Of a stretch of DNA of 64,000 bases, positions 20,746 to 31,930 are shown in pieces; the first letter of the stretch is position 1; every line of letters starts with the position of its first letter. The stretch covers positions 462,879-526,878 of the forward strand of contig JBAZWB010000001.1 of the NCBI GenBank assembly GCA_041660605.1, in the 5' to 3' direction. Under the pieces are notes generated by a model. That model saw nothing but the letters and a program-made list of their open reading frames with translations, was not told where the DNA came from and did no database searches. Made by a program: the position numbers and the translations under genes. This DNA comes from Patescibacteria group bacterium (GTDB taxonomy: Bacteria > Patescibacteriota > Patescibacteriia > UBA10025 > JAHIVO01).

Positions 20746-22302
20746 ATGCCCCAAAAAACTACAAAAAAATCCAACGGCACGAACGCCGGCTTTGAAGCGA
20801 CTCTCTGGGCCGCAGCTGACAAAATGCGCAATAACATGGATCCGGGTGAATATAAGCACGTGGTTCTTGGTTTGATTTTTATCAAGTACATTTCCGACGC
20901 TTTTGAAGAGATTTACAACAAAATCAAAGCTGATCCTGACCACTACGAAGGTCAAGAAGAAGATAGAGACGCATACACGTCGGAAAGTGTCTTCTGGGTG
21001 CCACAAGATGCACGTTGGGAATATTTGAAATCAAATGCCAAGAAGCCAGAAATCGGCAAGCTTGTTGACGATGCAATGGTTGCAATTGAGAAAGACAACC
21101 CCAGCCTAAAAGGAGTTCTCCCAAAAAGTTATGCCCGTCCTGACTTAGACAAAGTTCGGCTTGGCGAGTTAATCGACCTCATCAGCACCATCGGCCTCGG
21201 CGATAAAGAAAGTCGAAGTAAAGATATTCTTGGTGGCGTCTATGAGTATTTCCTCGGACGGTTTGCTTCTGCCGAAGGTAAGGGCGGTGGTGAATACTTT
21301 ACTCCAAAATCTGTTGTGAAATTGCTCGTGGAAATGCTCGAGCCATACAAAGGCCGCGTCTACGACCCCTGTTGCGGTTCAGGCGGCATGTTTGTGCAAA
21401 GTGAAAAATTCGTTGAAACACACGGTGGCAGCAGGCACGACCTCGCAATTTATGGACAGGAATCAAACCCGACCACTTGGCGCCTGTGTAAAATGAACTT
21501 GGCCATTCGCGGAATCGAAGGCGACCTTGGGCCTCATAACGCCGACACATTTCACAATGATTTACATAAAGAGCTCAAAGCTGATTACATTCTCGCCAAT
21601 CCGCCATTCAATATCAGCGACTGGGGCGGTGAGAGATTGAAAGACGATGTCCGCTGGAGTCTTGGCGTGCCGCCTGCAGGTAATGCCAACTACGGCTGGA
21701 TTCAGCATATGGTGCATCATTTAGCCACTACTGGTATCGCTGGGTTTGTCTTGGCAAATGGCTCACTGTCGTCAAACACATCTGGTGAAGGGGAGATACG
21801 AAAAAAGATGATCGAAAAAGGCCTGGTGGACTGTATCGTCGCTATGCCAAGTCAGCTTTTCTACACCACGCAAATTCCTGCGTGTTTGTGGTTTGTTTCA
21901 CGGGAGCGGCACGACCACAAATTCCGCGACCGACATGATGAAATTCTATTCATTGACGCTCGTAAAATGGGGACAATGATCACGCGTAAAAATAGGGAAT
22001 TAACCACAGAAGATATTGAAAAAATATCTGGCGTCTACCACGACTGGCGCAATAAAAAGGGTAACTATAAAGACGTTAAGGGTTTTTGCAAAGCAGCGAA
22101 AATTGAGGAAGTTGAAAAAGCCGGATTTGTACTCACCCCCGGCCGTTATGTTGGCACGGATTATGTGGAAGAAGATGACGGTACTTTTGAAGAGAAAATG
22201 ACAAAATTGACGAAGGAATTATCTGGTCAATTCAAGCAGTCAAAAGAACTTGAGGAAAGGGTGAAGAAAAACCTCAAAGATATCGGCTATGAAATCAAAT
22301 AA
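20746..22302 (+). CDS. hsdM: Type I restriction-modification system methyltransferase subunit
   Basis: HsdM N-terminal domain plus N6-MTase motifs ([13 protein letters not shown] in [12 protein letters not shown]). Confidence 0.9.
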
Positions 22303-23251
22303 AGTTTTAGTAATCTTTGAGACGAATATTATTAGAAATCCGAAATATAATTTTGGCGAAATAGATTTTGGATCGGATTTTGGCTCAGTACGAGAATATG
22401 TAAGAAATAATGAACTAACAAATCTTGTTGATTTCGCAATTGCACAGATGAGTATCGACGAACTATCTTATGGAAGGCAAGCAGAATATCAGAGTGATAA
22501 GGGGAAGCTTTTTGAGTTAAGTAGCAGAATGAATGGCGTGCCAGGATTTAAAATTATTAATCCGCAAGATGATTTTCAGTTTCCCACATTTTATAGGGGG
22601 CATGTTAATAAATTTATTAAACGAAATAAGTTGATCATAATTGGGTATCCTCCAAAAATAGTCTTTAGTAATGTAATTCTAAGAAGTTTAGAGAAGCGCC
22701 CGCCTTTTTTGGTGTCAAATCAACATTCTGATTATGGGTTTAAAGATGTAATCATTTGGGAATCGATTTTATGCTTTAAGTCAATACGAAAATATAATAA
22801 AGTTGTTTTATTTACAAATGATTTAGGATTTGAAAGTCAATGCGAAAAAGAATTTTCAAAAGTTCACCCGTGTTACTTTAAAATTTGTAAAGATTTCGAG
22901 AGTGTTATTAAAGAACTTGAAGTAAGTGAGGGTATCAAAGTTGCGATTGAGGGTGACACTGATATAGCGGACGATGAGCGCACGGAACTTATAGCGCTGG
23001 TGTATTCAGATTATTTTATTTCAAGTTTAACTAACTTTATTAAAGAAAGTATAAAAATTGATGAAGGTAGATCTATTGAGCTTTTGAGTCCGATGACTAA
23101 TTCTGAAGACAATATTATTGACGATGAAGTCGTTGGAAAAATTATTTATTCCAAAGCCAGGGTTAAAGTTGATGGTGAAATAAAGAGAATTAATATTAAA
23201 ACTGTTCTTGATGATGCTAATGGCATAGAAAGTCATGAGATATATGAATAA
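22289..23251 (+). CDS. unknown protein with predicted PIN-like N-terminal domain, embedded between hsdM and hsdS
   Basis: Pattern [11 protein letters not shown] ... DVIIWESIL ... VLFTNDLGF resembles the PIN acidic-residue layout; overlaps hsdM by 14 nt and hsdS by 17 nt; very AT-rich. Confidence 0.45.
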
Positions 23252-24392
23252 AACGAGCGCAAAATCTATTAAGTCGGAAACGGAGTATTACCCAGATGGG
23301 TGGAAACTGAATATAATTGGGGATTTTTTATCACTAGAATATGGCAAAGGACTAAAAGAAGATCTGCGAAAGCCGGGTAAGGTTCCTGTGTATGGTTCGA
23401 ATGGTGTTGTTGGTTATCATAATGAACAAATGGTAGATGGTCCAGGAATTATTGTTGGAAGGAAGGGGAGTGCGGGGGAGGTTATTTTTTCTAAAAAAGG
23501 ATTTTTCCCAATTGATACAACATATTTTGTTAAAACTAATTTAGATAAAAGCTATATATATTATTTGTTAAAAAACCTTGACCTTAAAAAATTTGTTGGT
23601 AGTAGCGCAGTCCCTGGTTTAAATAGGAATGATGTTTATTCTCAAATAGTAGCAATACCCAAAGCGGAAAACGAACAACAAAAAATCGCCGAAATACTTT
23701 CTTCCCTCGACGACAAAATAGAGCTCAACCGGCAGATGAATGCAACCTTAGAAAAAATCGCCAGTACACTTTTCAAAAAATGGTTTGTGGATATTGGTGA
23801 TGAGTTGCCAAAGGGGTGGAAGAAAGGTGCAATCAGCGATTTCGGAAGTGTCATATGCGGGAAGACACCACCAAAATCGGTAAAGGAGTATTTTGGTGGC
23901 AATTTTCCTTTTATTAAAATACCCGATATGCATGGGAGTCCTTTTATCTTTATTACAGAAGATAGTCTTTCTGAGATGGGGATGAATTTTCAAAAAAATA
24001 AGGTAATCCCAGCTGGTTCTATTTGTGTAAGTTGTATTGCTACAGTTGGCTTAGTAAGTATGACGACCGTTAATTCGCAAACCAATCAGCAAATTAATTC
24101 GATTGTTCCTTCGGAGAAGTATTATCAGTTTTATCTATACGAAACATTTAAAAATATTAGTGGACTACTGCAAAGAATGGGTAGTAGTGGTTCTGCAACA
24201 CTAAATGTGAATACAACCTCTTTTTCCGCTATAGAAATATTAAGACCCACTGACGCAGCCCTAGAAAAATTCGACAGAATTGTAAGGCCATTTTTTGATC
24301 AAATAAAACATAATTTACAAGAAAATATCAATTTATCAATTCTTAGAGACTCACTTTTGCCTCGTTTAATGAGCGGAAGGATTAGGGTATGA
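23235..24392 (+). CDS. hsdS: Type I restriction-modification system specificity subunit
   Basis: Two target-recognition domains separated by conserved IPKAENEQQKIAEILSSLDDKIELNRQ; C-terminal LPRLMSG. Confidence 0.85.
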   Translation: MRYMNKTSAKSIKSETEYYPDGWKLNIIGDFLSLEYGKGLKEDLRKPGKVPVYGSNGVVGYHNEQMVDGPGIIVGRKGSAGEVIFSKKGFFPIDTTYFVKTNLDKSYIYYLLKNLDLKKFVGSSAVPGLNRNDVYSQIVAIPKAENEQQKIAEILSSLDDKIELNRQMNATLEKIASTLFKKWFVDIGDELPKGWKKGAISDFGSVICGKTPPKSVKEYFGGNFPFIKIPDMHGSPFIFITEDSLSEMGMNFQKNKVIPAGSICVSCIATVGLVSMTTVNSQTNQQINSIVPSEKYYQFYLYETFKNISGLLQRMGSSGSATLNVNTTSFSAIEILRPTDAALEKFDRIVRPFFDQIKHNLQENINLSILRDSLLPRLMSGRIRV

Positions 24393-30818: not shown

Positions 30819-31000
30819 TATAGTATTGAGTTGAGGTGATTTTAAATTACCAATACACAATTTTACAAGTTCCAAACAAATACCAATAATCAAATTCCAA
30901 TGAATGACCAATGCCCAAAGACGGAATGGGCAGGGGATTTTAAACTTTATAAAGGTATCAGTATTGACAAACTTTATAAAGTTTGGTAAACTTGTGATAT

Positions 31001-31930
31001 ATGGAAATATTACATAAATTAAAGATTATTCAGCAGTTAACCGGCAAAACGCAGGAAACACTGGCTCGTGAGCTGGGCGTGTCTTTTGTGGCGTTTAACA
31101 GCTGGATTAACGGGAAATCACAGCCGCGAGCACGCGCAATTAAGCGCATAGATGCTTTATTTGCCGGGCTGATCGGAACGGCGAGGCAGGAAGCAGATGT
31201 ACTTATTACAAAAAAATCAATTATCACCGCTCGGCAGCGTTCGCACCAAAATATTCTGAAGATGATATTGAATAATCCAGATATCCGCGACAACTTTTTA
31301 CTGGCACTAACTTACCATACCAACAGGATTGAAGGCAGCACCGTGACTAAAGACGAAACCGCGGCCATCATGTTTGACAATGCGACGTTTAAAAGCCGCA
31401 CCCTAACAGAACAATTAGAAGTAAAAAACCATCAAGCTGCTCTATGGTATTTATTCGGCTATATCAGTGAAAAACGTCCGGTAAATGAGCAATTGATTAT
31501 TCGGCTCCATGAAATACTTTTAAATGGAATTCATTCAGAGGCGGGTCTTTATCGACGTCATGGAGTCAGGATCGTTGGCGCGAATGTACCGACTGCCAAC
31601 TATTTGAAGGTGCCAGTATTGATGCGAAGGTTATCTTCTGACCTCCTAAAAACCGGACGCGATCTGATAGCTCAAGTCAGCCGCATTCATGCGCAATTTG
31701 AACAGATACATCCATTTGCCGACGGTAACGGCCGGGTTGGCCGCCTGCTTTTAAATGCACAATTGCTCGCAAAGAACCTGCCACCAGCGGTTATTGAACA
31801 AAAAAATAGGCGTATGTATATGAAGTCACTTAATATTGCCCAGGTAGAGGATGATTATGGGCAGCTTGAGGATTTTTTGTGTGATGCCGTACTTAAAGGT
31901 TTTCAGATTTTAGAACGCCATGGTGGGTAA
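31001..31930 (+). CDS. HTH-Fic (Fido) family protein, AMPylation-competent motif
   Basis: XRE-like HTH (TQETLARELGVSFVAFNSWINGKS). Inhibitory-helix-like TNRIEG ([ST]xxxE[GN]). Fic motif HPFADGNGRVGR. Confidence 0.85.
   Translation: MEILHKLKIIQQLTGKTQETLARELGVSFVAFNSWINGKSQPRARAIKRIDALFAGLIGTARQEADVLITKKSIITARQRSHQNILKMILNNPDIRDNFLLALTYHTNRIEGSTVTKDETAAIMFDNATFKSRTLTEQLEVKNHQAALWYLFGYISEKRPVNEQLIIRLHEILLNGIHSEAGLYRRHGVRIVGANVPTANYLKVPVLMRRLSSDLLKTGRDLIAQVSRIHAQFEQIHPFADGNGRVGRLLLNAQLLAKNLPPAVIEQKNRRMYMKSLNIAQVEDDYGQLEDFLCDAVLKGFQILERHGG

Follow-up and report, generated by a model that had tools for sequence, protein, structure and literature searches.

The 64-kb window analyzed here, a stretch of 64,000 nucleotides (44.0% GC) from a Patescibacteria group bacterium whose best-named relatives are Kerfeldbacteria, Buchananbacteria and Falkowbacteria, carries ten open reading frames (ORFs), all on the + strand, between the start of hsdM at position 20746 and the stop of a Fic gene at position 31930. 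An earlier reading made from the letters alone (the sequence-only reading) had taken this interval for one contiguous defence island of ~11 kb; its ten ORFs, their coordinates and their domain matches were all confirmed by our analysis, and the island was not. With moderate confidence, we propose that the interval is not one island, being rather a mosaic of a type I restriction-modification (R-M) operon (20746-28318), genes resident in the candidate phyla radiation (CPR; 28574-30818) and a gene that combines a helix-turn-helix (HTH) with a Fic domain (31001-31930). The locus is a genuine defence locus, though a fairly ordinary one, with resident CPR genes on its flanks and between its parts, and since known concepts (type I R-M, embedded defence cargo, class II Fic proteins and the DUF45 neighbourhood) cover it, its novelty is modest. 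Its main points of interest are the conserved architecture hsdM-PIN_12-hsdS-slot-hsdR and a CPR-wide HTH-kinase/STAS module. Loci from relatives that were used for context comparison are designated by L-numbers (L005, L015, L180 and so forth). The features downstream of hsdR are as follows:

28320..28513, + strand: scar of a second ygjP gene, comprising its 5' end (28320-28374) and 3' flank (28457-28513), with ~500 nt of gene body deleted
28574..28624, + strand: promoter and operator of the HTH-GHKL gene, TTGACA-17-TAAACT with three exact copies of TTGTAAGTTT/AAACTTACAA
28625..29359, + strand: BldC/MerR-type HTH fused to an RsbW/SpoIIAB-like GHKL kinase domain, 244 aa
29369..29698, + strand: STAS-like (DUF4325) partner, 109 aa (Pfam DUF4325 9.8e-6, 25.6 bits, cut-off 23)
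29807..30163, + strand: 118-aa protein with one N-terminal transmembrane (TM) helix, no family match in profile searches
30270..30818, + strand: YgjP-like (DUF45) zinc metallohydrolase, 182 aa (Pfam PF01863 3e-45, 155 bits, cut-off 26; HELCH at residues 149-153)
30941..30992, + strand: Fic promoter, TTGACA-17-TAAACT, with the palindrome CAAACTTTATAAAGTTTG over the -35 element and spacer and an extra half-site upstream (by sequence inspection)
31001..31930, + strand: XRE-HTH fused to a class II Fic domain, 309 aa (Pfam Fic 4.7e-18, 66 bits; HTH_3 1e-4; PADLOC PDC-S04 6.8e-43, SoFic 3e-30)

The distribution of the HTH-GHKL/STAS pair argues against its belonging with the R-M operon to one defence island. 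The HTH-GHKL family comprises 3185 clusters with ~60% (50-78%) identity across diverse CPR lineages, and its DUF4325 partner lies directly downstream in nearly every locus that is long enough (~75 loci). A comparison of the window with L015 gives 65-76% identity for the pair and 50% for GreA. Among ~75 other loci the pair has different neighbours almost everywhere; NUDIX, RsgA, acetyltransferases and PPDK are among the genes met there, which are often housekeeping ones, and just three of these loci (L113, L176 and L178) have type I R-M genes at a distance of ~3 kb or less. Since the neighbours are mostly unrelated genes, the pair would be a resident, CPR-wide regulator module and is probably not a defence gene. 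The sequence-only reading had itself named dispersal in housekeeping contexts as what would speak against an island, and for the pair such dispersal is what these ~75 loci display. The pair should consequently not be scored as a defence gene merely for adjoining hsdR; it seems to rank among the best-conserved transcription-factor modules of the CPR and deserves study as such. In the literature we found no paper on a DUF4325-GHKL pair, nor on partner switching in the CPR.

The motifs of the two proteins suggest how they may work together. The GHKL domain has an RsbW/SpoIIAB-type fold with N, G1 and G2 boxes (N box EIGDNSFAHN at residues 118-127, DRGQG at 152-156 and GNGLK at 192-196), and the partner carries an invariant IDF..VLTVTPSW.DEFL, in which TPSW is invariant and S49 is a candidate phospho-acceptor. 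The STAS protein would bind the kinase domain, or be phosphorylated by it, and would thereby tune the DNA binding of the fused BldC-like HTH. BldC of Streptomyces is a small MerR-like regulator, a stand-alone HTH of ~70 aa, whereas the HTH encoded in the window carries a GHKL domain. With RsbW-RsbV and SpoIIAB-SpoIIAA the module shares the fold of the kinase domain, the activity of which is predicted; it differs from them in that the partner is a DUF4325 protein and not a canonical STAS protein, that the kinase domain is fused to an HTH, and that neither a sigma factor target nor a PP2C phosphatase is seen. No sigma factor or PP2C gene recurs beside the pair in the annotated neighbourhoods, the fused HTH standing instead.

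The promoter of the HTH-GHKL gene is informative in two respects. First, 6 nt separate the end of TTGACA-17-TAAACT from the ATG, which makes a leaderless mRNA probable. Second, the exact operator 10-mer TTGTAAGTTT occurs in three copies in the window, all of them at 28574-28623, and ~50 orthologous promoters share a layout in which a 10-mer inverted repeat lies upstream of the -35 element and a copy follows right after TTGAC, often with a further copy at the -10 element or the ATG (1-4 copies in total). The 10-mer co-varies with lineage, being TTGTAAGTTT in the window and TTATAGGTTT, TTATAGATTT or GCATAGATTT elsewhere, and outside its own promoter it was encountered once in ~490 kb of related flanks (a count from which L139 was left out). 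These operator repeats point to autoregulation by the fused HTH. A wider regulon covering hsdR, ygjP and fic was also considered and rejected, because the exact 10-mer is present at no neighbouring promoter in the window.

A separate observation concerns heliorhodopsin, the gene for which adjoins the pair in three distinct loci and in two orders (L005 4696-6673, L118 645-2780 and L105 6431-8323, the last being equivalent to L106/L107), and in none of the 80 GreA-centred control loci. In the window, the heliorhodopsin gene (13872-14666) is upstream of the pair at a distance of 14 kb. Bulzu et al. (PMC8612252) remarked on HATPase genes close to heliorhodopsins, not including the kinase of the window, which is invisible to Pfam. 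These neighbourhoods may be a hint that heliorhodopsin signalling and the HTH-GHKL regulator are connected.

The full-length ygjP gene, whose product has the HExxH zinc site in the form HELCH, likewise looks like a resident gene. Homologues that are 40-65% identical lie beside or near GreA in L015/16, L035, L083 and L098, and the fetched flanks of these loci contain no HsdM/HsdR match (L015 has hsdS ~7 kb upstream). The adjacency of hsdR and DUF45/YgjP genes is a classic neighbourhood, and in placing a DUF45 gene near the R-M genes the sequence-only reading was correct; indeed, the scar of a second such gene abuts the hsdR stop, the intact copy being 2 kb downstream. Its first segment (28320-28374) shares 85% identity with the start region of ygjP (30259-30313), with the ATG changed to ATA and an early TAG, and its second (28457-28513) is 84% identical to part of the ygjP-fic spacer (30877-30933). 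Each of the two segments aligns at a score of 78, as against 27 ± 4.5 for shuffles of the 3'-flank comparison. Because this deleted copy lies directly after hsdR, the hsdR-DUF45 adjacency must have existed here at one time and have been broken later. As for the 118-aa protein encoded between the pair and ygjP, a 47%-identical homologue adjoins GreA in L029. Neither this ORF (29807-30163) nor the deleted ygjP copy (28320-28513) had figured in the sequence-only reading.

The HTH-Fic gene is the third part of the mosaic. Its catalytic motif HPFADGNGRVGR (residues 237-248) conforms to HxFx(D/E)GNGRxxR, and in an alignment its TNRIEG (residues 107-112) falls exactly on the columns of SNKIEG, the inhibitory motif of the Clostridium difficile Fic protein (CdFic, PDB 4x2e), its closest solved Fic relative (3.4e-20). 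This alignment assigns it to class II, with E111 as the predicted intramolecular inhibitory glutamate, in agreement with what the sequence-only reading had said of its two motifs; the protein would be a class II AMPylase that its own inhibitory helix, through Glu111, holds inactive. The likeness to CdFic (PDB 4x2c/4x2e) lies in the inhibitory S/TxxxEG and catalytic HPFxDGNGR motifs, which align; the difference is the extra N-terminal XRE HTH of the window protein, whose activity is predicted. The PADLOC PDC-S04 match spans residues 94-283, and PDC-S04 is itself only a candidate single-gene Fic defence family (bioRxiv 10.1101/2024.01.29.577857). It is thus plausible that the gene is a candidate stand-alone toxin or defence gene, and we found nothing that ties it functionally to the R-M operon. 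Its promoter ends 8 nt before the ATG, and through CAAACTTTATAAAGTTTG, a perfect 18-nt palindrome, the XRE HTH probably represses its own gene.

The promoters of the HTH-GHKL (28590-28625) and HTH-Fic (30964-31001) genes are alike, in that both read TTGACA-17-TAAACT and end 6-8 nt before the ATG, a spacing that suggests leaderless mRNAs in either case. Their operator layouts are similar as well (AAACTT...AAGTTT half-sites), while the repeat sequences differ. A linkage between the pair and Fic, as suggested by the window, L005 and L035, was nonetheless rejected: the density of canonical Fic motifs is the same in the surroundings of the pair (0.51 per 100 kb across 73 loci) as in those of GreA (0.53 per 100 kb across 80 loci).

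Marks of an island border were sought around the interval. There is no integrase or recombinase domain in 13.8-35.2 kb, no adjacent tRNA (those of the window lie only at 4.4-6.2 kb) and no flanking pair of direct repeats around the interval; an inverted repeat that brackets the stretch from the 255-aa membrane protein gene to GreA (19769-19788 / 35257-35276, 18/20 matches) was not taken as a border, given that by our estimate ~0.3 such pairs are expected by chance in 20 kb. The comparison with syntenic genomes, which the sequence-only reading had recommended for defining the borders and the integration site, yielded a marker and no such site. RecX adjoins GreA in L020 (GreA 66% identical) and L024 (57%), the two closest RecX-retaining relatives by GreA identity, and the two genes are 16.7 kb apart in the window (17952 to 34699); the lineage-specific region is therefore wider than 20746-31930, and it also takes in PEGA, the 255-aa membrane protein and an acyltransferase. 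At the edge of this variable region, 240 nt upstream of recX, there is a pseudo-duplicate of the recX 5' end (17173-17262 vs 17413-17500, 88% over 68 nt) that reads MPDFKPTNEDFQHIKEKIVDYLSRQGFSL* and forms a further rearrangement scar. A phage origin was rejected too: IMG/VR (2.9 million viral contigs) holds no full-length copy of the pair, no copy of the hsdS-hsdR slot gene X described below and only distant relatives of PIN_12, and PHROGs returned a weak, uninformative match to the GHKL part, with nothing phage-like and no prophage genes.

Could the ten genes nevertheless represent one horizontally acquired defence island, in which the R-M system, the HTH-GHKL/STAS regulators, YgjP as an accessory and Fic as an effector cooperate? 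They are co-directional and closely spaced, YgjP is a typical hsdR neighbour whose scar touches hsdR, and Fic matches PDC-S04. Moreover, in L005 the pair is followed by HTH_17 and Fic, in L113, L176 and L178 it lies near hsdM, and in L035 (4324-7107, single-amplified genome AM-311-L03) YgjP (65%) and Fic (33%) come after a non-orthologous 349-aa fusion protein (wHTH-HATPase_c-DUF4325), with GreA 3 kb further on, so that the gene order of the window recurs there, built with a different version of GHKL-STAS. Some points weigh against the mosaic and our account of the pair: the proximity of R-M genes in L113, L176 and L178, taken with the order in L035, makes a functional link of the pair to its neighbours possible; and for the putative partner switch, which would operate without a sigma factor, no PP2C phosphatase partner is found near the pair in neighbourhoods with gene annotations. 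On the other hand, the pair occurs in ~75 loci mostly devoid of R-M, YgjP or Fic genes, Fic motifs are no denser around it than around GreA, its operator is at no neighbouring promoter, and in one and the same pair of genomes its conservation exceeds that of GreA. GC content differs sharply among the parts of the interval, the integrase, adjacent tRNA and flanking repeats of an island are missing, and the pair and YgjP already stand at unrelated places in relatives. The single island thus strikes us as distinctly improbable, and the claim of the sequence-only reading gives way at the pair, YgjP and X, the homologues of which occur in non-R-M contexts, and at the borders.

More improbable still, in our judgment, is that the HTH-GHKL/STAS pair is a mobile defence or toxin-antitoxin-like module that has been very successful in the CPR. 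Neighbourhoods that differ from genome to genome, the tight linkage of the two genes and operator repeats that point to autoregulation, as in toxin-antitoxin loci, would fit such a module, as would the weak PHROG match to the GHKL part and the coupling of DUF4325 genes to PIN.4 nucleases in other bacteria (PMC5499597). It is contradicted by the degree of conservation (50-78% identity across diverse CPR lineages, above that of GreA), by the want of a full-length copy among the viral contigs, and by the fact that the pair has no PADLOC model beyond its HTH and no recognisable toxin domain. We therefore retain the mosaic, with the pair as a resident regulator, and turn to the part of it that is a defence system proper, the R-M operon:

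20746..22302, + strand: hsdM, methyltransferase subunit, 518 aa (Pfam N6_Mtase 3.9e-110, HsdM_N 9e-28; PADLOC MTase_I 7e-238)
22289..23251, + strand: PIN_12 (PF16289, formerly DUF4935) nuclease, 320 aa (Pfam PIN_12 1.7e-12, 48.5 bits, cut-off 32)
23235..24392, + strand: hsdS, specificity subunit with two target-recognition domains, 385 aa (Pfam Methylase_S 4e-44, two stretches; PADLOC Specificity_I 5e-108)
24389..25210, + strand: slot gene X, 273 aa, with two N-terminal TM helices and a ConA-like/CBM66/DUF1080-like beta-sandwich; ATGA overlap with hsdS, 9 nt before hsdR
25220..28318, + strand: hsdR, restriction/translocase subunit, 1032 aa (TIGR00348 1.5e-187; PADLOC REase_I E=0; Pfam HSDR_N, SWI2_SNF2 and T1RH-like_C)

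In type I systems, HsdM2-HsdS methylates a bipartite site and, with HsdR, unmethylated DNA is translocated and cut. Pfam, NCBIfam and PADLOC agree on a complete type I set (HsdM, HsdS and HsdR) in this one locus, and the motifs of HsdM (DPCCGSGG for S-adenosylmethionine binding at 207-214, NPPF at 285-288) and HsdR (PD...ELK nuclease at 147-164, GSGKS Walker A at 311-315, DEAH at 413-416) are intact. Judged by these motifs, the operon is an intact type I R-M system with predicted methylation and restriction activity, as the sequence-only reading had held, and of the two embedded genes that it had listed as unknowns one can now be named as PIN_12. The five genes (hsdM, PIN_12, hsdS, X, hsdR) are, from their spacing, a single predicted transcription and translation unit, with overlaps of 14 nt (hsdM/PIN_12), 17 nt (PIN_12/hsdS) and 4 nt (hsdS/X) and a 9-nt gap before hsdR. 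The PADLOC search that had been called for in the sequence-only reading thus recovered the complete type I set and the PDC-S04 match of Fic, and gave no model for either PIN_12 or X. Membership of the MADS system was rejected, since only the HTH of the GHKL gene resembles mad1 (8.5e-11), and hsdM scores 48.9 bits against NCBIfam MAD2, where the cut-off is 720.

Sister operons show which parts of this architecture are fixed. The order is hsdM, PIN_12, hsdS, a 275-aa ORF, hsdR in L180-182; the same with a 273-aa ORF in L183; hsdM, PIN_12, hsdS, Fic, a 278-aa ORF, hsdR in L185; and hsdM, a 293-aa ORF, PIN_12, hsdS, hsdR in L186, the PIN_12 of which is 26% identical to that of the window. Between the window and L180, L183 and L185, HsdM (77-81%) and HsdR (69-75%) are well conserved, as against PIN_12 (35-39%) and HsdS (30-47%). 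GC is low over the central cassette (PIN_12 31.5%, hsdS 35.8%, X 31.3%) relative to its flanks (hsdM 45.9%, hsdR 42.0%), and the sister operons show the same dip. This identity split and GC dip are what is expected if specificity cassettes with embedded genes recombine between hsdM and hsdR flanks, and the central cassette (PIN_12, hsdS and X) has thus probably been exchanged by recombination between these conserved flanks. The sister operon in L180 (2319-16987) sits inside a dense defence island, in the company of Peptidase_M78 with a DUF4411 PIN protein, an AAA_15/21 ATPase with an RloB-like protein, and McrBC.

PIN_12 belongs to a rare subfamily, which counts six full-length homologues (35-40% identity) and further, more distant members. 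The acidic residues E/D11, E58, D148/D153 and D178, which form the PIN acidic tetrad, are kept in 11 sequences, and in all five relatives with a readable context, spanning 26-40% identity, the gene lies between hsdM and hsdS. By these gene orders PIN_12 is, we would argue, a constant component of this R-M lineage, a fixed insert between hsdM and hsdS. No small antitoxin ORF is present beside it, hsdM and hsdS flanking it directly with overlapping frames, and the arrangement is thus not of the VapBC type. Nor is PIN_12 a PrrC-type anticodon nuclease by its domains: its sole domain match is PIN_12, and there is no PADLOC PrrC match. Matelska et al. (2017, PMC5499597) reported PIN genes transcriptionally coupled to HsdM/HsdS/HsdR, and the operon of the window resembles theirs in this coupling. 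In the same survey DUF4935 (PF16289) was defined as a PIN domain with an unknown C-terminal region, its genes were usually monocistronic and PIN/R-M arrangements were not conserved between close species, whereas the clade of the window lies consistently between hsdM and hsdS. Beyond that survey, we found no paper that describes PF16289.

The second embedded position, between hsdS and hsdR, behaves differently. X shows no detectable similarity to the slot proteins of L180, L183, L185 and L097 and matches no PADLOC model, and the cargo found in this slot elsewhere matches PADLOC PDC-S45 (a trypsin-like protease, 3e-92) and PDC-S32 (4e-13), or is a Fic protein matching PDC-S23. The gene content of these operons indicates that the hsdS-hsdR gap is a swap-in slot for unrelated cargo, and that this is a constant feature of the lineage. 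The source of the PDC models is a survey of genes that lie within BREX, DISARM and type I R-M loci ('guilt-by-embedding', bioRxiv 10.1101/2024.01.29.577857), and TgvAB in the type I R-M locus of Vibrio cholerae VPI-2 is an experimentally proven case of embedded defence (PMC11411939). The window shares with TgvAB and with the guilt-by-embedding candidates (PADLOC PDC/HEC) the nesting of unrelated defence genes among hsd genes; it differs from them in that neither PIN_12 nor X matches a PADLOC model, and in that its PIN_12 is constant and not occasional cargo. Two other CPR type I R-M loci also carry inserts, namely a 249-aa double-TM protein between hsdS and hsdR in L097 (15610-20492) and a Schlafen-AlbA_2/HATPase_c_4 protein between hsdM and hsdS in L113 (2529-6929), where the HTH-GHKL/STAS pair and a RadC gene lie directly upstream of the R-M operon. 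In the operon a conserved R-M scaffold is joined by a single nuclease that is constantly embedded in it and by a single slot of hypervariable content, a compact case of guilt-by-embedding outside model bacteria, in a group of tiny-genome bacteria whose defence biology is almost unexplored experimentally.

What might PIN_12 do in this position? In EcoprrI-PrrC an anticodon nuclease resides within a type Ic R-M locus, and PrrC consists of an ABC-ATPase N-domain with a HEPN-like nuclease C-domain. By analogy, PIN_12 would be a latent RNase, co-produced with the methylase core and serving as a second-line, PrrC-like fail-safe: the R-M complex, in particular its methylase core, would keep it silent, and phage anti-restriction that neutralises the restriction complex would release it. 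We propose such a guard role because PIN_12 is embedded at a constant position with overlapping frames, has a conserved active site and lacks an antitoxin, and it is also favoured by the fast divergence of PIN_12 beside the slowly evolving HsdM and HsdR. PrrC itself is listed as almost exclusively R-M-embedded (Payne et al., bioRxiv 10.1101/2024.01.29.577857). The likeness, a latent RNase gene inside a type I hsd operon for which the same guard logic is proposed, is one of position only; the insert of the window is a PIN_12 protein. In its fullest form, which we put forward tentatively and consider unlikely to be right, the proposal would make PIN_12 a fourth subunit, always present, in a distinct lineage of type I R-M systems, physically held by HsdM/HsdS and freed as an RNase by anti-restriction proteins; the hsdS-hsdR gap would be a dedicated bay for second-line effectors that are swapped together with new specificities; and X would belong to an unseen class of effector or sensor, a membrane-tethered, cytoplasm-facing, lectin-like beta-sandwich that could recognise, for example, sugar-modified phage DNA or a phage protein. 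If it is true that PIN_12 guards the restriction complex, the PrrC paradigm would extend to another nuclease family and another phylum.

Several considerations weigh against this proposal. The PrrC-like guard role is drawn purely from position and analogy, PIN_12 lacks a PADLOC model match, and the five readable PIN_12 contexts may share descent. The beta-sandwich of X is placed in the cytoplasm by the positive-inside rule, applied to the charge distribution in an alignment of 2-TM and 3-TM family members, so that charge bias is the whole evidence for its topology; its structure model is moderate (pLDDT, the predicted local distance difference test, 71); and its six homologues all lie outside R-M loci, among housekeeping genes. 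For this last reason X is a candidate by position only: it might be a further cargo effector or sensor, or it may be a passenger. Both embedded genes could be selfish or passenger cargo, PIN_12 stabilising the operon as an addiction toxin and X, a membrane protein, travelling with the recombined hsdS cassette. The contexts of the X homologues are in keeping with this idea, and so are the low GC that PIN_12 and X share with hsdS, as for a cassette moving as a block, the missing PADLOC matches, the lack of an antitoxin-like gene, and the poor conservation of PIN genes beside type I subunits between close species (PMC5499597). Against it, PIN_12 keeps its position in five of five operons across 26-40% identity, with overlapping frames and conserved catalytic residues, and the slot of X repeatedly holds matches to defence candidates. 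We rate passenger cargo as unlikely.

Of the remaining sequence around the interval, 16.0-36.5 kb contains no Rfam match (E <= 0.1). The interval itself is bracketed by two multi-pass membrane proteins without a family match, encoded at 19857-20624 (255 aa) and 32205-32690 (161 aa); the start of the former resembles a signal peptide, and its N-terminal domain is rich in cysteine.

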